From an uncultured Gammaproteobacteria bacterium (GTDB lineage Bacteria; Patescibacteriota; Microgenomatia; UBA8517): a stretch of DNA of 64,000 nucleotides. Below, one piece after another: positions 37,238-55,221 of the stretch (position 1 is its first letter; each line of letters starts with the position of its first letter). Both the position numbers and the translations under genes were made by a program. Where the stretch lies: positions 98,173 through 162,172 of the forward strand of contig CAYRUS010000001.1 of NCBI GenBank assembly GCA_964427735.1, read 5' to 3'. The notes beneath the pieces were generated by a model. The model did not search any database and had not been told where the DNA came from. It was given only the letters and a program-made list of their open reading frames with translations.

Positions 37238-38293
37238 CTAAGTTTTTCTTGCAGACTGTGCCATACCTAAACTAATCATCATACCCAAAAATGAAGAACC
37301 CCCTGCTGACACCAAAGGTAAGGGCAACCCAGTGATAGGTGCCATACCCAAATTCATTGCAATATTTATAAAGACCTGAACCAAAAACATCACAAATATC
37401 CCTGTTAAAAATGCTCTTGACTCTAAATTTCTTGTTTCTTCGATATATCTTACAAGCTTATAGAGCAAGAAAAAGATAGAAACAATTACTATACCTGCTC
37501 CGATAAAACCTAATTCTTCTCCAATAGATGCAAAAATAAAGTCTGTGTGTCTTTCAGGCAAGAAAGATAGTTGGGTCTGCACCCCCTTACCTAATCCACG
37601 ACCCCAAAAACGTCCCGAACCAACTGAAATTAATGATTGGATGCTATTGTATCCTGCTCCAAGAGGATCTGATTCAGGATTTATAAAGGAGACTATCCTT
37701 TGCTTTTGATACGGCTGTAATAAAAAATAAAAAATCGGCACTAATAAAATTGGAGCTAAAGCACCAATAAAATAGAACCTTTTAGGTAAGCCAATAGCAA
37801 GAAGCACTCCTACAATTCCACAAAATGTTAAAATCGTCATACCCAAAGACGGCTGAACTAGAATAAGGAAAAGAGGTACTATACTAAAAGCCAAAAACTT
37901 GAGCCCAGAAGGAAAATTTATTTTACCTGCATGTTCTGCTGCATACTTTGCAAAAAATAAGACAAGAAAAGGTCTGACAATTTCGGACGGCTGAATAGTT
38001 ATTGGACCAATAGGTATCCATCTTAGAGCACCACGGGATACCTGACCAATTAACAAAGTAATAATTAGCAAAACCAAAGAAAAGATATACAAATGAGAAG
38101 AAAAAACAGATACAATCTCATAATCTAAAAAGGAAAATATAAAAAAAATTACTATCCCCAAAAGTATATAAAATAAATAACCGGGAAACAAAAAATTTGC
38201 AATCGAATACAGCACAAGAAGACTAAATAGAATTAAAAAAACTTGCACAGCAACAAAACTAATGTCTAGAGGTTTTCTATGACTGCTTTGCAT
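37238..38293 (-). CDS. SEDS family peptidoglycan polymerase (RodA/FtsW paralog)
   Basis: The protein is polytopic and 351 aa. It carries the SEDS signatures ...ERHTDFIFASIGEELGFIG... and GLPLPLVSAGGSS. Confidence 0.75.
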   Translation of the reverse strand: MQSSHRKPLDISFVAVQVFLILFSLLVLYSIANFLFPGYLFYILLGIVIFFIFSFLDYEIVSVFSSHLYIFSLVLLIITLLIGQVSRGALRWIPIGPITIQPSEIVRPFLVLFFAKYAAEHAGKINFPSGLKFLAFSIVPLFLILVQPSLGMTILTFCGIVGVLLAIGLPKRFYFIGALAPILLVPIFYFLLQPYQKQRIVSFINPESDPLGAGYNSIQSLISVGSGRFWGRGLGKGVQTQLSFLPERHTDFIFASIGEELGFIGAGIVIVSIFFLLYKLVRYIEETRNLESRAFLTGIFVMFLVQVFINIAMNLGMAPITGLPLPLVSAGGSSFLGMMISLGMAQSARKT

Positions 38294-38299
38294 TACTCA

Positions 38300-47943: not shown

Positions 47944-49185
47944 TTACAACTTCTCTATAAGTTTTTCTAAACCAATAGATCTAGAACCTTTAATAAGTAC
48001 TACTGTATTAGTATTTAGAATCGGGTTTAAGATAGACAGTGCATCACTCCATTTATCTACGTGGTAAACATGATCCTTATTCATTCCAGCTTTAATGGCT
48101 TTTTGCCCTAAATACTTAGTCAAATTCCCAACACCAATCAAGTATTTGATATTTTTCCTAGCAAGATATTCACCTAATTTTTCGTGGCTAACTCTGTCAA
48201 GTTTACCTAATTCTAACATGTCACCAAATACAACTATTTTTTCATGCTGGTTTGTAATATTTGAAATTTGTAGCAATGTATCAATTGCAAGCTTAGCTGC
48301 TCGTGGATTGTTGTTGTAGGAATCATCTACAATAGTGGCTCCGGAATCATGTTGAAATATTTTCATTCTATGTTCCATAGGATTGAACGATTCTAAACCT
48401 TTTTTTATTAAAGAATAATCAATAGAAAATATACTAGCAACACATGCTGCTGCTAGTGAGTTTTCGACAAACTGTTTGCCTACGACAGGCAATTCAATGT
48501 TAATACTTTTCCCTAAATAAGATAATTCAAATGTAGTTGTAAATTTCTCTGTTATCCTGATTGATTTTGCTTCTATTTTGGTACCATTTCCAAACCATAT
48601 AATTCTTGCCACAGTTTCCCGAGACAAATTTGATGAATTTTCATCATCTCTATTTAATACTGCATAATCACTTTTACCTAAACTCTTAATTATTTTCCCT
48701 TTTTCCTCAAGTACTCCTTGAACATCTCCAAAATATTCAGTATGAGTTGCATCGATATTTGTTATAACTGAAACGTCCGGCTTTGCGAGCCACATATAAA
48801 AGTCCATATCACCTGGATATTCGATTCCCATTTCTAAAACTAAGTAACGACTATTTGTTCGTGATCGAAAGATGGTAGAGGGTATATTAAAAACAGGATC
48901 TATATTATCTCTAGAATAAACCGTATTATCGTGTTGCTTTAAAATAGACGAAATCATTTCTTTAGTTGTTGATTTTCCTGCACTCCCAGTAATTCCAATT
49001 ACTTTTAGATTTCCTTGTTTTCGAAGATACTCTAAATAACCGCGTGCCACCTTTCGTTTCAAAGGATGATAAATCCAATCCTTAGAAAATCTGAAGACAG
49101 CTTCTAAGTCGTTCAAATTACTTTTATAGTAATTTTCAGAAAGTTTTTGTCCTTGCCAAAGTTTCACTAATTTTTCCCTATTCAT
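47944..49185 (-). CDS. murF: UDP-MurNAc-tripeptide--D-alanyl-D-alanine ligase
   Basis: VIGITGSAGKSTTKEM is the Mur ligase P-loop. It has MurF-like middle and C-terminal domains. The N-terminal domain is short. Confidence 0.8.
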   Translation of the reverse strand: MNREKLVKLWQGQKLSENYYKSNLNDLEAVFRFSKDWIYHPLKRKVARGYLEYLRKQGNLKVIGITGSAGKSTTKEMISSILKQHDNTVYSRDNIDPVFNIPSTIFRSRTNSRYLVLEMGIEYPGDMDFYMWLAKPDVSVITNIDATHTEYFGDVQGVLEEKGKIIKSLGKSDYAVLNRDDENSSNLSRETVARIIWFGNGTKIEAKSIRITEKFTTTFELSYLGKSINIELPVVGKQFVENSLAAACVASIFSIDYSLIKKGLESFNPMEHRMKIFQHDSGATIVDDSYNNNPRAAKLAIDTLLQISNITNQHEKIVVFGDMLELGKLDRVSHEKLGEYLARKNIKYLIGVGNLTKYLGQKAIKAGMNKDHVYHVDKWSDALSILNPILNTNTVVLIKGSRSIGLEKLIEKL

Positions 49186-49200
49186 ATATAATCTTAAAAG

Positions 49201-49842
49201 TTAAAAATCTGGGGAAACACAAACATGGTAACAAGCCAACCTTTTACCAACCTCCCCATTAATATTTTCTATTTTGTATTCATGTATAAAATTTATACGG
49301 CCTTGTTCGTGTAATTCTTGAAGGATATCTCTCAAAATTTCGGTGTATTTGGGATCGTACCCATTATCCAACCTACTACTTACTGGTTTTCTTTCTTTAC
49401 CTTTATAATATCCAGTAGGATCAAAATCTATTGCTGCTCCTGCTTGATGTGAACTTACTTCAGCTGCATTTTCACCCTGATTAATTAACTTTTGTTGTAA
49501 CTCTTCAGATCTATAAAGCGAAGAAATTGAGAGTACAACATCAGGTTGTAAGCCAGAGGCTTTAATACGTTTGGACCACTCTATTTGTATAACATTCAAC
49601 ATATTTAGCGCTTGTGGATTAAGAAAACGAGGTTCATCATCTTCCCTTAATGCTCTTATCATACCGTAAGATTCACCTTCTGTTGGAACTTCAACCAAAT
49701 CACCTTTTGCTAATGCTTTCACTGGATCTGAAATGATATTGTCTTTCCACCAATCTAGTTCTATTTGCGCCAGCGCTCTTACTCTATCAAGTTCCTTTAT
49801 AGCGCCGTCTTGAATAACTTCTATATTCTTAGATTCAGTCAT
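49201..49842 (-). CDS. cytoplasmic VanY/M15B-like D,D-carboxypeptidase-fold (LAS zinc peptidase) protein
   Basis: SLYRSEELQQKL matches YRSxxxQ. SSHQAGAAID matches SxHxxGxAxD, which provides the zinc ligands. A later CYH supplies another His. It has no signal peptide or TM helix. The start was moved to the ATG at 49842, 8 nt after an AAGGA Shine-Dalgarno. Confidence 0.55.
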   Translation of the reverse strand: MTESKNIEVIQDGAIKELDRVRALAQIELDWWKDNIISDPVKALAKGDLVEVPTEGESYGMIRALREDDEPRFLNPQALNMLNVIQIEWSKRIKASGLQPDVVLSISSLYRSEELQQKLINQGENAAEVSSHQAGAAIDFDPTGYYKGKERKPVSSRLDNGYDPKYTEILRDILQELHEQGRINFIHEYKIENINGEVGKRLACYHVCVSPDF

Positions 49843-49846
49843 TAGT

Positions 49847-50548
49847 TTATCCTTTATAAGCAATGAGCCTTCTTGTAAATAGCTTATCAAATTCTTTTCT
49901 ACCCAAGTATGCCTTTTTTCCTAAACCATTGTAGCTGTTCGGGTCATGAAACCAAAATCCTTCGACTGTTTTATCTTTGCTTAATTTATATCCATAAACC
50001 AAATACTGATGTCCGCCAGTTTCACTCTTGACAGAAGCAGCTACTAAATAATCATTGTTAATTAAACGGGCAATCATACTCGAGGGTACATATTTCATAA
50101 TCTCAGCTGTTAATCCATAATTTCTAGCTAATTCAGCAAGCGTATTATGATACCATCCGATATCATTTTCAACATCGTACCCTCTCAGTTTCACACCTTG
50201 GACAACCAGCTCCATTAACGTTTTTTCTGGTTTTTTGAACGAGCTCATTGCCATTTTCAAAACCGCCAGTGAACATGATCTCCATGCCCAATATTCAAAC
50301 TGCTGCTTATTCTTGGCACCAAACTGCAACAGCGCATTTTCATCGTTAATTTCACCATAAAATTCTTTGATCGTCTTACTATCTGCTCCACCTAATTGGC
50401 TAATATATTCAGGATTAAATTTACTAAAATAATCTCCTGATTCGAGTTTAGAAAATTCAACTTCAATTTTCTTATCCTTAAATATAGAAATTAGATACCC
50501 AATAGTGTCGTGATAAATACTTTTAGAAAAGTTACTAATCTCCTTCAT
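49847..50548 (-). CDS. cytoplasmic C39-like (Peptidase_C39_2-type papain fold) protein
   Basis: WRSCSLAVLKMAMSS is a Cys context, similar to GCATTSSAMILSYYG in the Kelch protein. GGHQYLVYGY is a His context. It has no signal peptide. Confidence 0.45.
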   Translation of the reverse strand: MKEISNFSKSIYHDTIGYLISIFKDKKIEVEFSKLESGDYFSKFNPEYISQLGGADSKTIKEFYGEINDENALLQFGAKNKQQFEYWAWRSCSLAVLKMAMSSFKKPEKTLMELVVQGVKLRGYDVENDIGWYHNTLAELARNYGLTAEIMKYVPSSMIARLINNDYLVAASVKSETGGHQYLVYGYKLSKDKTVEGFWFHDPNSYNGLGKKAYLGRKEFDKLFTRRLIAYKG

Positions 50549-50552
50549 TTTA

Positions 50553-50795
50553 CTATTTGTCCTTATCTTCGTAGTCCAAACTGTAGACTATCTTCTCTAT
50601 TTCTACAGAAACCTTTTCGCCCGTAATTTTAATAATTTTAGCATTATGTGGTTGTTCATGAAATTTGCAATTAATTATATCTGGTGGAACATCTGCTAAA
50701 AAAGAAAAATATATTGTGAATTCTTCTCCTGTTTCCAAACATTCATAAATAACTGGTAAAGCTAGCTCTTTTCTTGGATCCCTTTCAGATGTCAT
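50553..50795 (-). CDS. small hypothetical protein (80 aa)
   Basis: It is an intact ORF with an ATG at 50793-50795. It is co-directional and tightly packed within the dcw insert. Confidence 0.3.
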   Translation of the reverse strand: MTSERDPRKELALPVIYECLETGEEFTIYFSFLADVPPDIINCKFHEQPHNAKIIKITGEKVSVEIEKIVYSLDYEDKDK

Positions 50796-50825
50796 TGTGG
50801 CCTATATTATAAAGCAATGATATAT

Positions 50826-51427
50826 TTATACAAAACTTAGCCGTCTAAATTCAAGCCTTTTATCTTTATATAAATTGTTCCACTCATCACTTAGAATGTA
50901 TTGACCATCTATATGAAAATTGTTTTCCTCAACAACCAATTTATCGATATGAAGACCTACTGGGGCAAGTTGTAATGTGGATTGGCAGACAAATAAATCT
51001 TTTTGCCTTCTTAATATTAATGCAACATGAGTGTATTTATTATTTTTTTTACTCTTCTTTAAAATCAAATCTAATTCGCGTGCTTCACCCGGATTAATAA
51101 TTTTTATTGAACTACTTGCAAAAACAAATGCACCTGCTCTGTAAACTCCTCTTTTAGAATTATTGCGACATTTTAAATGATTTTCTAATATCCCGTCTAA
51201 ACCGGCTTCACGGAATGCAAAATCAAGTACATTGTAGACCAATCCAGAGCAATCAATACCTAAACCAAAAAAAAGCATGTAATCTCTTATGTTATCTTTT
51301 ATAGAGTTTTTTTTTAAATCAAATTCATAAGAACTGCTCAACTTAATTAATGATTTTTTTAATTTGCTCTGGCAAACCTTTTTCCCGATACCATCCATAC
51401 TCAACTTTTCTTTTAACATATAATTCA
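50826..51427 (-). CDS. cytoplasmic NlpC/P60-family (papain-like) peptidase-fold protein
   Basis: YMLFFGLGIDCSGLV matches the NlpC/P60 catalytic-Cys motif. THVALIL is a downstream His. It has no signal peptide. The first in-frame ATG is at 51425-51427; the track start at 51440 is a TTG. Confidence 0.5.
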
Positions 51428-51615
51428 TGAACAATATCAATCATTTCTTCATCTACAGTAGCTTTTCTCATTAAGTTTATAAAATGCTCTTCTACTATAT
51501 TACTATGATATGGTGTTGTAACTTTCGTACCAAAGATATCAAGATTGTTATAATTTTGAATCATATCCCAGCTGTACTTATTTAATAAATTTAATAGTTT
51601 ATTGTTATTTTGCAT
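51343..51615 (-). CDS. small hypothetical protein (90 aa) overlapping the NlpC/P60 ORF 5' end
   Basis: The ATG is at 51613-51615. It overlaps the murE stop by 11 nt and the NlpC/P60 frame by about 85 nt. Whether it is independent or fused is unresolved. Confidence 0.3.
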   Translation of the reverse strand: MQNNNKLLNLLNKYSWDMIQNYNNLDIFGTKVTTPYHSNIVEEHFINLMRKATVDEEMIDIVHELYVKRKVEYGWYREKGLPEQIKKIIN

Positions 51616-52873
51616 AATTTATACTTTTTTTCTTACCTTTGAGAGCTAATAAAACTGCTTCTTTGTCTGACCATGGATATTCTACTCCTTTATAATTCAT
51701 GGACTTCTCATGACCTTTTCCGCAAATCACTACAATATCACCATTATTTGCAGCTTTGTTAATAGCAAACCATATTGCCTCTCCTCTATCACGTATTACA
51801 ATAAAAACATGTTTATTGATTTCATTGAGCTTACTTTTATAAGATACTTGAATTGACCCAGCTTTTTCCGCACCTTTTATGATTTCTTTATTAATTTCTT
51901 CAATTTCCTCATATCTTTGATCTTCTGCAGTTAAAATAGATATATCAGCTAATCTTACTGATATCTTACCCATTATTGGTCTTTTTGCTTTATCTCTTTC
52001 ACCAGCACAACCAAATACTACTATAAGTTTACTACCCTTTTTAAGTCTATTTTTTAATTCGGAGAGAACATTCTTTAAGGCATTTGGGGTATGTGCGAAA
52101 TCTACATATATTTTTATCCCTAATTTATTTTCAATTGATTCCAGCCTACCAGGTATAACGTTAAAAGATTTGATTGCTTCTAGCACTGCAACATCTTTAA
52201 TACCTAATTCCATTGCAGCCATAATCGCTGCTAGAGCATTGTATTGATTATATTTCTCCTTAAAAACTTTCTTTAAATCACTAAAACTTTTTTCCTTAAG
52301 ATCATCAAGGCTATATTCTACGATTTTAATATTTTTTAGCTGTCTTTTTATATATTTATACGAGTCGTCATCTCTGTTAATTACTGCAGTTTGCGCATTT
52401 GAAAAAAGCTTTGATTTAGCTTTTATATAATTTTGAAAAGTCCTATGGTAATCAAGATGTTCATGTGTGATATTTGTTAAAACACCTACATCAATACTTG
52501 AACCAAAAAGTCTATGTTGATCCAAACCATGTGAAGTTGCTTCTAAAACAACATATTCTATATCTTCCTCCAAAGCCCTTTTTAAAAGTTTTTGGAGTTC
52601 TCCTGAATTTGGAGAAGTCACATGAAGCCCCGTATCTATTTCTTTATCGCCGATATATGCTGCAACTGTGGAAATTAAAGCAGCTCTTTTGTGATTTTTT
52701 CTAAGCACATGGTATAACATCGTTGAGGTCGTTGTTTTTCCATCAGTTCCTGTAACTCCAATTATCACCATTTTCCTGGCAGGATAACCATATCTTACAA
52801 CTGCAATAATTGCTCTAAGGAGATGATAAAAATTTTTTAATTTCTGTGGGAGTTTATCTTTAATTTTTTTCAT
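51605..52873 (-). CDS. murE: Mur ligase family protein, MurE-like, with no N-terminal UDP-binding domain
   Basis: The P-loop IIGVTGTDGKTTT lies at residue ~40. NITHEHLDYH matches the MurE DHLDYH motif. DFAHTPNALKNVL matches the MurE DYAHTPDAL motif. The protein is 422 aa, short for MurE. Confidence 0.65.
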   Translation of the reverse strand: MKKIKDKLPQKLKNFYHLLRAIIAVVRYGYPARKMVIIGVTGTDGKTTTSTMLYHVLRKNHKRAALISTVAAYIGDKEIDTGLHVTSPNSGELQKLLKRALEEDIEYVVLEATSHGLDQHRLFGSSIDVGVLTNITHEHLDYHRTFQNYIKAKSKLFSNAQTAVINRDDDSYKYIKRQLKNIKIVEYSLDDLKEKSFSDLKKVFKEKYNQYNALAAIMAAMELGIKDVAVLEAIKSFNVIPGRLESIENKLGIKIYVDFAHTPNALKNVLSELKNRLKKGSKLIVVFGCAGERDKAKRPIMGKISVRLADISILTAEDQRYEEIEEINKEIIKGAEKAGSIQVSYKSKLNEINKHVFIVIRDRGEAIWFAINKAANNGDIVVICGKGHEKSMNYKGVEYPWSDKEAVLLALKGKKKSINYAK

Positions 52874-52887
52874 AAAAACTTATGTTC

Positions 52888-53933
52888 TCATACAAAATCT
52901 TGGACTTCACGTTCTAAATCGACTTCAAATTTTTCTTTTATATCTATTTGAATTTCAACAGCTAACAAGTTTACTTCATGTGCTGTTGCTTTTTTTAATG
53001 GGTTTGTTAATACCAGAGCGTTTTTGTCTGATACTTTAGCATTTCCCATGTGTTTACCCATCCATCCTGCTTTATCAATAAGCCAGCCAGAAAAAAGTTT
53101 AACTTTACCATTTTCCACTTCAAAAAAGGGGGTATTTGGGTAATCTTTTTGAACTTTTTTAAGTTTACTTTTACTAACAATCGGATTTTTAAAGAACGAA
53201 CCGGCATTCGGATTCTCGGTTGGATCCTCAAGTTTTATTTTCCTTAAATGTAAAACAGCAGATCTAATGTCTTTGATTGTTGGATTATTAATTTCATTAC
53301 TTTGGAGATAATCCTGTAAGGAATTATAACTAATGACTGGCTTACCATCTTCTTTTAACTTTAAAACAATTTTCGTTATTAGATACTTATTTCTGTTCAT
53401 TAATCGTTTAAAAAAACTGTTTCTGTATTCAAAATCACACTCGTGGTAAATGAATTTAATCATTCTTTTATCTTTAAATGAGTATGCCACAAGATACTCA
53501 AAAACATCCTTAAGTTCTTGACCGTATGCACCAATATTTTGTACTGGTGCTGCGCCAACACTACCTGGTATTCCTGATAACGCTTCAATCCCTTGCAAAT
53601 TTTTATTTACCGTTTCCCTTACTAAATCATCCCAGACAATTCCGGCTCCAGCTGTTACTATTACCTCACCTCTCTCTTTCTCCTGAAATTCTAGTCTGTC
53701 ATCTACACACTTAATTACAATTCCAAGTATCTTCCCATCATTCACGAGAACATTGCTTCCTCCTCCTAGAATGCGAATAGAGAGATTTTTTTATCTGCAA
53801 ACTCTGCTACTTCTCCAATCTGATTTATATTCTTCACTTCCGTAAAGTACTGTGCGATACCGCCAATATGAAAAGTAGTAAATTCTTTTAAGTCCACTCT
53901 TTGCCGTAGATATCTTGGAGTTCTTGACTTCAT
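52888..53933 (-). pseudogene. murB: UDP-N-acetylenolpyruvoylglucosamine reductase MurB, interrupted by a frameshift at a homopolymer
   Basis: The N-terminal frame (ATG 53933 to stop 53767) reads MKSRTPRYLRQRVDLKEFTTFHIGGIAQYF..., a MurB N-terminus. The rest continues in the -1 frame as ILGGGSNVLVNDGK.... The break is at the T7 run at 53786-53792 (A7 on the coding strand). One more A restores a single frame. Confidence 0.75.
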
Positions 53934-55221
53934 TTTTTAACTTCTTCTATTTCTGCTCCTAATTTTTTTAGATTTTGAGCAAAATCTGGATGACCTCGAT
54001 ATAATGAATCTGCATTTAAAATTACTGATTCATCGTCAGCTATCATAGCTGTCATCACCATAGACACAACCACACGAATAATATATGGTGCTTCTACTGT
54101 AGAACTTCTAATTTTATTTCCGGTAGTGACAATTACCCTGTGCGGGTCGGCAATAATTAGATTAGCACCCATCTTTACAAGCTCGCTGGTCCAAAAAAGA
54201 CCTGCCCATACATCCAGTTATGGAAAATTATCTGTCCATGTCCTCCTGCTAAAGCCATGGGTATAAATAAAGGTAAAGTATCAACCGGCAATCCTGGCCA
54301 CGGATGGCATTTGATCTCTGCTGTATTAAATCCGTTACCCCCATTTGGCAAGATTGTTTGATTTGCTCTAACTATTGATTTATCACCATCGTAATCTATT
54401 TGTATTCCAAATTTTTCAAAGACGTTAACAATATTATTTATTTTTCCTGGTAAAGAATTGTGAACTGTGATTTCACCACCAGTAACTGCAGCCAATGCCC
54501 AAAAAGTAGTAATTTCATAATGATCACTCCACAAAGTGTGTTCTGTTGTAGATAGTTTTGTTTCTCCTTCAATTTCGAGAATATTGGATCCAATACCTTT
54601 AATTTTTGCTCCGCTTTTAACCAGGAACTCACATAAATCCTGTACCTGTGGTTCACTGGCCGCATTAATAATTCTGGTTTTACCAGGTAAAGATGTTGAA
54701 AGCATAATTACATTTTCTGTTGCAGTAACACTCATTTCCAAAAGCCAAATCTCTTTTGCCTCTGCACTTGAAGCATCCATTCTAACACTTGATTCTGTTT
54801 CGCTAACAACCACACCTAAATCTCTAAAAGCTTTATAGTGTGCATCAAGTGGACGCATTCCTAAGGTACAACCACCAGGAAGATCCTCAAAAACTACTTT
54901 ACCAAAGCGTGCAAGCATAGAACCCCACAGCAGCGAGGTCCCTTTCATATTTCCGAGATCTTCTTGATCTAATGATTCCAGATTCACTTTACTGTTATCT
55001 AGAATCATTGTCTTTTCCTTTTTGTTCCACTTTATTTTGCTACCTAGTTTCTCTAATATTTTTACTAAGCGATGTACATCAGTTATATCTGGTATATTCT
55101 TTAGACTAACTGGCTCATCAAAAAGTAATGTAGCTGGAATAAGTGCAACAGCTGAATTTTTACTTCCGGAAGGGTAAATCTCACCAGAAAGAACTTGCCC
55201 TCCCTTTACTTTTATATCCAT
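53930..55221 (-). pseudogene. murA: UDP-GlcNAc 1-carboxyvinyltransferase MurA, interrupted by a frameshift at a homopolymer
   Basis: The 348-aa N-terminal ORF ends ...IIFHNWMYGQVFFGPASL*. The shifted frame reads ...FWTSELVKMGANL... and continues to ...RGHPDFAQNLKKLGAEIEEVKK. This matches the MurA ...ELSRMGA... and C-terminal regions. The break is at the A6 run at 54193-54198 (T6 on the coding strand). Confidence 0.8.

Follow-up and report, generated by a model that had tools for sequence, protein, structure and literature searches.

A set of peptidase-type genes was found between murE and murF in the division and cell wall (dcw) gene cluster of an uncultured bacterium of the candidate phyla radiation (CPR)/Patescibacteria, within a 64-kb window of contig CAYRUS010000001.1 (assembly GCA_964427735.1, positions 98,173 to 162,172). 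The insert encodes a LAS-fold zinc peptidase of the family DUF5715, a papain-fold protein of the C39_2 type, a frameshifted relative of the NlpC/P60 peptidases, and a short orphan open reading frame (ORF). We tentatively favor, at somewhat less than an even chance, a role of these proteins in the cytoplasmic cutting of peptidoglycan stem peptides or nucleotide-linked precursors, co-expressed with the Mur ligases. The arrangement is best classed as putative cytoplasmic peptidoglycan-peptide processing by uncharacterized families that, in the searches made here, were nearly confined to genomes and contigs of the CPR type. In the literature searched, no mention of DUF5715 was found, nor any account of these genes in the dcw clusters of CPR bacteria.

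The DUF5715 protein, the probable start of which is the ATG at 49842 (213 amino acids [aa]) rather than a TTG at 49890, scores 57.3 bits against PF18979 (gathering cutoff, 26.8) and covers profile positions 29 to 162 of 171; its orthologue in locus L002 scores 50.1 bits. Word-indexed homologue searches gave just 1 to 6 relatives per protein, and hence all 1.84 billion cluster representatives were searched exhaustively for DUF5715, which yielded 180 clusters at E values of ≤1e-3, mostly of 190 to 260 aa. The protein of the window carries the motifs LYRSEELQ and SSHQAGAAID. Residues S108, L109, R111, H132, G135, D139, E188, and H206 are invariant in 36 aligned members of the family, and C204 and C208, the pair around the metal-binding His (CYHVC), are nearly so. 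The LAS metal-ligand pattern, consisting of His-x6-Asp within SxHxxGxAxD and a distal His (H132, D139, and H206), is present. By analogy with VanX and LdcB, we propose these three residues as the metal ligands, Glu188 as the catalytic base, and Arg111 as the Arg of the YRSxxxQ motif. The catalytic Glu of VanX, VanY, and LdcB sits in an ExxH motif, which is absent from the DUF5715 family, where Ala or Ser is found three positions before H206. The N terminus also forms a long helix, in which an ExxWW motif is conserved.

With the AlphaFold2 model of this protein (predicted local distance difference test score, 96.4), the top Foldseek matches were two structures of the BaLdcB/VanY-like LD-carboxypeptidase, 4jid and 4mph (E value, 2e-4; probability, 1.0); M15 endolysins ranked next, along with the Hedgehog N-domain and with L-Ala-D-Glu peptidases. 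A profile search of the PDB with the family returned sub-threshold M15 enzymes only, VanY and VanXYc among them, and the match to Pfam VanY (PF02557) is likewise below threshold at 12.9 bits versus 25 (E value, 0.099), with weak matches to M15_2 and M15_4. The first-pass annotation of this DNA had called the protein VanY-like and placed it in M15B; the LAS fold, the YRSxxxQ and SxHxxGxAxD motifs, and the resemblance to BaLdcB bear out the first part, whereas membership in Pfam VanY or M15B did not hold up, given that score and the missing ExxH. On the analogy with these enzymes, carboxypeptidase or dipeptidase action on D-Ala-terminated stem peptides would be the most likely activity.

The C39_2-like protein encoded next to it matches PF13529 over profile positions 8 to 143 of 143, at 27.6 bits versus a cutoff of 24, and its L002 orthologue scores 25.4 bits; with the cutoff exceeded by a small margin and a papain-type Cys and His in place, the assignment made at first reading stands. 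The putative catalytic set is Cys92, His180, and Asp202. All three full-length orthologues retain Cys92, and His180 does not vary, while Asp202 is replaced by Asn in one partial sequence. A profile search of the PDB with this family gave nothing meaningful and no close solved structure. Classical C39 bacteriocin peptidases form the N-terminal domain of an ABC exporter and cleave double-glycine leaders. In contrast, the protein of the insert is a stand-alone chain with neither an ABC domain nor a match to PF03412. It resembles Pfam Peptidase_C39_2 in the full-length profile match and the Cys/His/Asp set, and differs in having no close characterized member and in that its gene, in the loci found here, always precedes a DUF5715 gene. 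A second Peptidase_C39_2 protein, with Kelch repeats, is encoded elsewhere in the window (Table 1); judged by its sequence, it probably represents an exported paralogue with the C39_2 fold seen in the insert.

Export signals were judged by Kyte-Doolittle hydropathy only, in 19-residue windows. The maxima of the insert proteins are at most 1.39, versus 2.3 to 2.8 for the controls MraY, FtsQ, and FtsI. Orthologues across all three peptidase-type families likewise have no hydrophobic N termini, and just 4 of 147 full-length DUF5715-like homologues were found with one. The Kelch-C39_2 protein, an internal control for export signals, does start with a hydrophobic segment, which indicates that this organism marks exported proteins of the C39_2 fold in the usual way. 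The absence of signal peptides and membrane anchors that had first been read from the window is thereby extended to whole families, and the insert enzymes are probably cytoplasmic.

Linkage to peptidoglycan precursor genes was found well beyond this genome. The C39_2-like and DUF5715 genes keep together as a pair of constant order, with the C39_2-like gene first and the two overlapping or almost touching, and in every other locus with enough flanking sequence the pair adjoins murF, ddl, or mraY (Table 1). The NlpC/P60-like family, searched for in 185,579 species-representative genomes, was detected almost exclusively in CPR/Patescibacteria (Amesbacteria, WWE3, Saccharibacteria, Dojkabacteria, and Shapirobacteria); one short contig is labelled uncultured Gammaproteobacteria. 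Of 14 loci from species-representative genomes, 9 have the gene or a paralogue of it beside a mur gene or mraY, for which the binomial P value is ~1e-6 on a background assumed, generously, to be 10%. The pair and the NlpC/P60-like gene occur together in this window only, where the NlpC/P60-like copy is broken, so that they are two separable units sharing one slot. The conservation of the insert, which was to be checked, is thus partly confirmed: linkage to mur genes recurs in relatives, but a single fixed five-gene module does not, as the units travel independently. A view of the two units as alternative occupants of the murE-murF slot would fit this single case.

Two further gene families were seen in the related loci. 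Paralogues of the NlpC/P60-like protein directly upstream of mraY, from Saccharibacteria, Dojkabacteria, and other CPR bacteria, share an N-terminal PYFxN...GKGTP domain and are preceded by an ATP-grasp enzyme of ~400 to 435 aa (ATP-grasp_3, with a weak match to an archaeal pseudomurein Ddl-like model); the ATP-grasp gene, the paralogue, and mraY make up a conserved three-gene unit. A signal-less alpha/beta hydrolase of the Abhydrolase_1/Hydrolase_4 type, absent from the window, recurs after the DUF5715 or NlpC/P60-like gene in relatives and might belong to this functional group as well.

The NlpC/P60-like gene of the window is split by a frameshift at a run of seven A's. The homologues are single chains of 258 to 283 aa, and dropping one A from the run restores a 262-aa ORF colinear with the family. 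Because the homologues are single chains and the 90-aa ORF upstream of the catalytic part aligns with their N terminus, the insert holds four genes rather than the five originally counted. The 90-aa fragment, which overlaps murE by 11 nucleotides (nt), contains the N-terminal domain of the family, with the motifs PYxxN and YGWYRxKG and no Pfam match. An identical run and split were found on a contig from a separate sample (L029; SRR32080635) that differs from the window by 2 bases in 1104; the frameshift is therefore real and common to strains. Both differences are nonsynonymous, and L029 keeps the consensus residues, Gly in YRGKG and Trp in a WxN motif, which in the window are replaced by Glu and Cys. 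With a frameshift and two substitutions at conserved positions, the window copy is probably nonfunctional; from its sequence, a pseudogene is most likely, with at best low-level expression through slippage on the A run.

In fold, this family is papain-like, with the Cys at a helix N terminus and the His on a beta-strand, and its nearest structural neighbor is the gamma-D-Glu-diamino-acid endopeptidase YkfC; a profile search of the PDB with the family gave nothing meaningful. The window copy scores 13.2 bits against PF00877, for which the cutoff is 23, and only one of five full-length homologues passes (P0009, 26.4 bits), three being sub-threshold and one without a match. The description of this gene as an NlpC/P60 enzyme with a GIDCSGLV catalytic motif is retained for the fold and the Cys, with Pfam scores on either side of the cutoff across the family and a broken reading frame in the window.

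As had been noted from the sequence, the murE-murF interval (49201 to 51615) is filled with codirectional, tightly packed ORFs on the minus strand, and the identities of MurE and MurF were confirmed. Along the minus strand, mraZ and rsmH come first, followed by a small ORF resembling ftsL (weak Pfam DivIC match), ftsI, murA, murB, and murE, then the ORFs of 90, 190/204, 80, 233, and 213 aa, murF, and, downstream, mraY, ftsW, murG, ftsQ, ftsA, and ftsZ. Gaps within the insert are -11, 30, 4, 4, and 15 nt, and a promoter and terminator scan of the region gave a result no different from that for shuffled sequence, with no excess of terminator-like sites. From this layout, the murE-insert-murF region looks like a single operon. 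An independent assembly (SRR7082976) is 100% identical across 20.7 kb of the region, and the GC content of the insert matches its surroundings in this genome of low GC content (~34%). The genetic code is the standard one: UGA recoding (tables 4 and 25) leaves the splits in murA, murB, and the NlpC/P60-like gene unfused, and TAA is the commonest stop. For the 80-aa ORF, searches of Pfam, NCBIfam, and PHROG gave no match, and none of the related loci holds a homologue; a near-identical copy with one substitution (P0161) was found in one other sample. The genes murC, murD, and ddl, reported at first as missing from the cluster, were found nowhere in the 64-kb window, and neither were Mpl, LdcA/YkfA (S66), YkfB, or a peptide transporter. 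Some 7 kb downstream of the ftsW of the dcw cluster, another gene of the FtsW/RodA (SEDS) family adjoins a class I aminoacyl-tRNA synthetase gene.

Table 1. Features of the insert and its flanks in the window, other cell wall-related genes of the window, and related loci (locus coordinates are those of the locus named)
Feature	Position	Strand	Evidence, remarks, or gene order
MurF, 413 aa; flanks the insert downstream	47944..49185	-	TIGR01143, E value 5.5e-90, 302 bits versus cutoff 288.6
DUF5715-family LAS zinc peptidase, 213 aa	49201..49842	-	PF18979, E value 2e-15
C39_2-like papain-fold protein, 233 aa	49847..50548	-	PF13529, E value 5e-6
Orphan ORF, 80 aa	50553..50795	-	Cys19, Cys43, His46, His50; stop 4 nt ahead of C39_2-like start
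NlpC/P60-like gene, C-terminal fragment with catalytic domain, 190/204-aa ORF	50826..51398 (ORF to 51440)	-	Cys in GLGIDCSGLVY, His in YTHVAL
A7 homopolymer with frameshift splitting the NlpC/P60-like gene	51354..51360	-	One-A deletion restores ORF
NlpC/P60-like gene, N-terminal fragment, 90 aa	51343..51615	-	Aligns with residues ~30-110 of homologues P0005-P0009
MurE-family ligase, 422 aa; upstream flank of the insert	51605..52873	-	TIGR01085, E value 1.6e-107
Kelch-repeat protein with Peptidase_C39_2 domain, 716 aa	31746-33896	+	C39_2 domain, E value 9e-13
Second FtsW/RodA-family (SEDS) gene	37238-38296	-	
murB	52888-53933	-	Single-base deletion near 53765-53772
murA	53930-55221	-	Single-base deletion near 54203 (FHNWMY/AGLFWTSEL)
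L025 (59-kb contig, close relative)			ftsI-murE-C39-DUF5715-murF-mraY-ftsW-murG-ftsQ-ftsA-ftsZ
L024			C39-DUF5715-murF
L028			C39-DUF5715-ddl; MurF-like ligase and alpha/beta hydrolase on opposite strand
L002 (GCA_964655765.1)			C39-DUF5715 pair divergent from mraY, then alpha/beta hydrolase
L011 (WWE3)			murA-murB-murE-NlpC-murF-mraY
L015			murE-murD-NlpC-hydrolase-murF
L010, L008			murC divergent from NlpC
L018, L019, L020, L022, L023			NlpC/P60-like paralogue subfamily directly upstream of mraY, ATP-grasp enzyme before paralogue
Regions with paralogue upstream of mraY and preceding ATP-grasp gene	L018:3-2098, L019:8557-10750, L020:8787-10729, L022:8752-10783, L023:132-2193		
Alpha/beta hydrolase	L002:7987-8730, L015:2573-3292, L026:840-1109, L027:560-1345, L028:3386-3853		
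Truncated MurE	L025:6051-7268, L010:13190-14464, L021:381-1634		
MurL-like UDP-MurNAc-L-Ala-L-Glu epimerase (Amesbacteria)	L010:6791-8155	-	NF041275, E value 7.5e-67, below curated cutoff; near murD
DegT-family aminotransferase and FemAB-family transferase	L015:4860-7108		Between murF and mraY

The MurE-family ligase scores 360 bits against TIGR01085 (cutoff, 257.3) and is a MurE rather than an Mpl by NCBIfam (E values, 1.6e-107 versus 3.4e-15). The lack of an N-terminal UDP-binding domain, seen already in the first-pass annotation, was confirmed: the match begins at model position 72, the P-loop is at residue 42, and only Mur_ligase_M and Mur_ligase_C were found, with no PF01225. The same truncation was found in three related loci (L025, L010, and L021; Table 1), whereas the WWE3 MurE of L011 is full length with its P-loop at residue 123. 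The truncated CPR proteins are of 405 to 424 aa with the P-loop at residue 35 to 47. From these sequences, the truncation is a lineage trait of several CPR genomes and not tied to the insert.

Single-base deletions were also found in murA and murB, in murB ahead of the GGGSN motif, and neither is at a long homopolymer. Both halves of each gene are conserved, at 57 to 63% identity to homologues for murA and ~34 to 39% for murB. Counting the NlpC/P60-like gene, three frameshifts fall within ~3 kb, and none of the other long ORFs of the window was noticed to be split. This sample alone showed the murA and murB lesions, which could be recent pseudogenes, in which case UDP-N-acetylmuramic acid (UDP-MurNAc) would be obtained otherwise, or errors in one sample. 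In L015, the DegT-family and FemAB-family genes hint at a branched or modified stem peptide. The MurL-like epimerase of L010 suggests, by its similarity, that some CPR bacteria reach D-Glu by MurD2/MurL instead of glutamate racemase.

Among known systems, the nearest comparison is with cytoplasmic recycling of murein peptides. In the cytoplasm of Bacillus subtilis, the signal-less YkfC acts together with an LD-carboxypeptidase, YkfA (PMC2954226), and YkfC takes part in the peptidoglycan recycling of the reduced-genome Chlamydia (PMC9928106). Since LdcB and YkfC are the fold neighbors of the proteins studied here, the same two chemistries would be represented as in the YkfA/YkfC route of B. subtilis and the LdcA/MpaA route of Escherichia coli. 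With YkfA-YkfB-YkfC (including DPP VI of B. sphaericus and YkfC of Chlamydia trachomatis), the set shares a carboxypeptidase-type companion and the precedent of a reduced genome. The companion here is of the LAS type (DUF5715) rather than S66, neither a YkfB epimerase nor a dpp/opp transporter is encoded close by, the genes lie within mur operons, and the NlpC/P60-like copy of the window is frameshifted. In YkfC and DPP VI, two N-terminal SH3b domains confer specificity for a free L-Ala at the N terminus. The NlpC/P60-like family has no SH3b Pfam match and carries instead an N-terminal domain of ~100 aa with PYFxN and GKGTP motifs and no Pfam match. With LdcB, VanY, and VanXY (MEROPS M15B), DUF5715 has the LAS fold, both motifs, and the His/Asp/His ligand set in common; it differs in lying far below the Pfam VanY threshold, in having no ExxH and no signal peptide or membrane anchor, and in its ExxWW helix and the near-invariant Cys around the third metal ligand. 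With LdcA-MpaA-Mpl of E. coli, only the proposed logic of cytoplasmic D-Ala removal, gamma-D-Glu–diaminopimelate cleavage, and re-entry into the Mur pathway is shared, since the S66 LdcA, M14 MpaA, and Mpl ligase families are all absent here. By sequence family, none of the insert enzymes is orthologous to a known enzyme of recycling.

From these comparisons we infer which bonds would be cut, in which substrates, and for what purpose. DUF5715 would act as a LAS-fold zinc carboxypeptidase or dipeptidase that removes a C-terminal D-Ala by LdcB- or VanY/VanX-like chemistry, and the C39_2-like and NlpC/P60-like proteins would be papain-fold cysteine amidases that cut an internal bond of the stem peptide, for example the gamma-D-Glu–diamino acid bond, as YkfC does. 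Imported or turned-over muropeptides, or mis-made precursors, might in this way be trimmed to pieces that MurE and MurF could reuse. In this genome the C39_2-DUF5715 pair is intact, and the NlpC/P60-like gene is seemingly decaying.

The muropeptide recycling module proposed at the outset thus retains its support from the absence of export signals, the mur linkage, and the fold neighbors LdcB and YkfC, and loses it in part, because no fixed module was found and Mpl, an S66 enzyme, YkfB, and a transporter are missing from the window. Several points weigh against stem-peptide processing in general or salvage in particular. DUF5715 departs from VanX, VanY, and LdcB in its active site, with the invariant Glu 18 residues ahead of the His and no ExxH; the C39_2 assignment is marginal, its fold being taken from Pfam alone; and the absence of signal peptides was judged from hydropathy alone. 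The NlpC/P60-like copy is broken here and so is not essential in this organism. Neither the window nor the related loci contain a peptide transporter, an Mpl, an LD-carboxypeptidase of family S66, or an L-Ala-D/L-Glu epimerase, and known salvage genes usually lie beside transporters rather than within mur operons. The MurL-like epimerase of L010 means that D-Glu need not be salvaged there.

The main rival reading, though a rather unlikely one, is precursor editing. DUF5715 would then act on Mur intermediates, either the terminal D-Ala of UDP-MurNAc-pentapeptide or D-Ala-D-Ala, in the manner of VanY, VanX, or VanXY, so as to set the length or composition of the stem peptide or clear mis-built precursors, with the papain-fold partner as a second editing amidase. 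The position of the pair directly beside murF, and beside ddl in L028, is at least as suggestive of editing as of salvage, and the placement next to ddl is like that of ddl and vanX or vanXY in van operons. Tight operon coupling to the Mur ligases also suits intermediates better than the catabolism of imported peptides, and the weak PDB matches include VanY and VanXYc. However, the best structural match is an LD-carboxypeptidase and not VanX, with scores that do not separate the two; the loci showed no D-Lac or D-Ser ligase and no gene resembling vanH or vanT; the papain-fold partner otherwise has no role in this model; and FtsI, a DD-transpeptidase that requires pentapeptide donors, is intact in the operon. 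It is less probable again that the insert encodes ordinary wall hydrolases, such as septum-splitting or host-attacking autolysins, exported without an N-terminal signal and placed in the dcw cluster for division. Division functions are indeed encoded in dcw clusters, and an M23-LysM hydrolase lies near murE in L010, but hydrophobic N termini are absent family-wide while the exported C39_2 protein of the window has one. No LysM, SH3b, or PG_binding domains were detected in the insert proteins, the CYHVC Cys pair of DUF5715 would be of a kind more usual in cytoplasmic proteins, and the neighbors are cytoplasmic Mur ligases instead of regulators of divisome hydrolases.

An origin as a phage lysis cassette or mobile-element remnant, with no role in peptidoglycan synthesis, is close to refuted. 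Endolysins typically carry M15, NlpC/P60, or cysteine-peptidase domains without signals, the LAS protein has weak PHROG endolysin matches (E values, 0.0017 to 0.035), and one insert gene is frameshifted. Nothing in the PHROG search was significant, however, and two scans of IMG/VR viral contigs found no relatives of either family. Integrase, repeats, and other phage genes are lacking, the GC content equals that of the surroundings, and the same genes are mur linked in many distantly related CPR genomes. We give a small chance, finally, to an obligatory CPR-specific step of precursor assembly by the papain-fold and LAS-fold proteins in place of salvage, in which, for example, stem peptides would be transferred or trimmed on a nucleotide precursor through an acyl-enzyme, in a noncanonical version of MurC-D-E-F. 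Such a step would be ATP independent and use a preformed, possibly host-derived stem peptide, with the MurE that lacks a UDP-binding domain as its partner or, in other lineages, the ATP-grasp ligase encoded beside mraY. If this were so, the CPR route to lipid II would differ from the canonical MurC-D-E-F sequence.

For the favored reading of cytoplasmic stem-peptide processing, the significance lies in the biology of the CPR/Patescibacteria, which account for much of the diversity of bacteria, have tiny genomes, are thought to depend on hosts for many building blocks, and mostly keep peptidoglycan genes. If ordinary recycling is what these genes serve, the value would be chiefly an improved annotation of CPR genomes. 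That annotation gains a cytoplasmic LAS subfamily of DUF5715 with a C39_2-like gene always ahead of it, and an NlpC/P60 family, almost exclusive to CPR bacteria, with an N-terminal domain that has no Pfam match. More broadly, a conserved and apparently cytoplasmic set of peptidase folds wired into mur operons would offer a handle on how CPR bacteria supply or control their stem-peptide precursors, whether by salvage of foreign muropeptides, proofreading, or tailoring.

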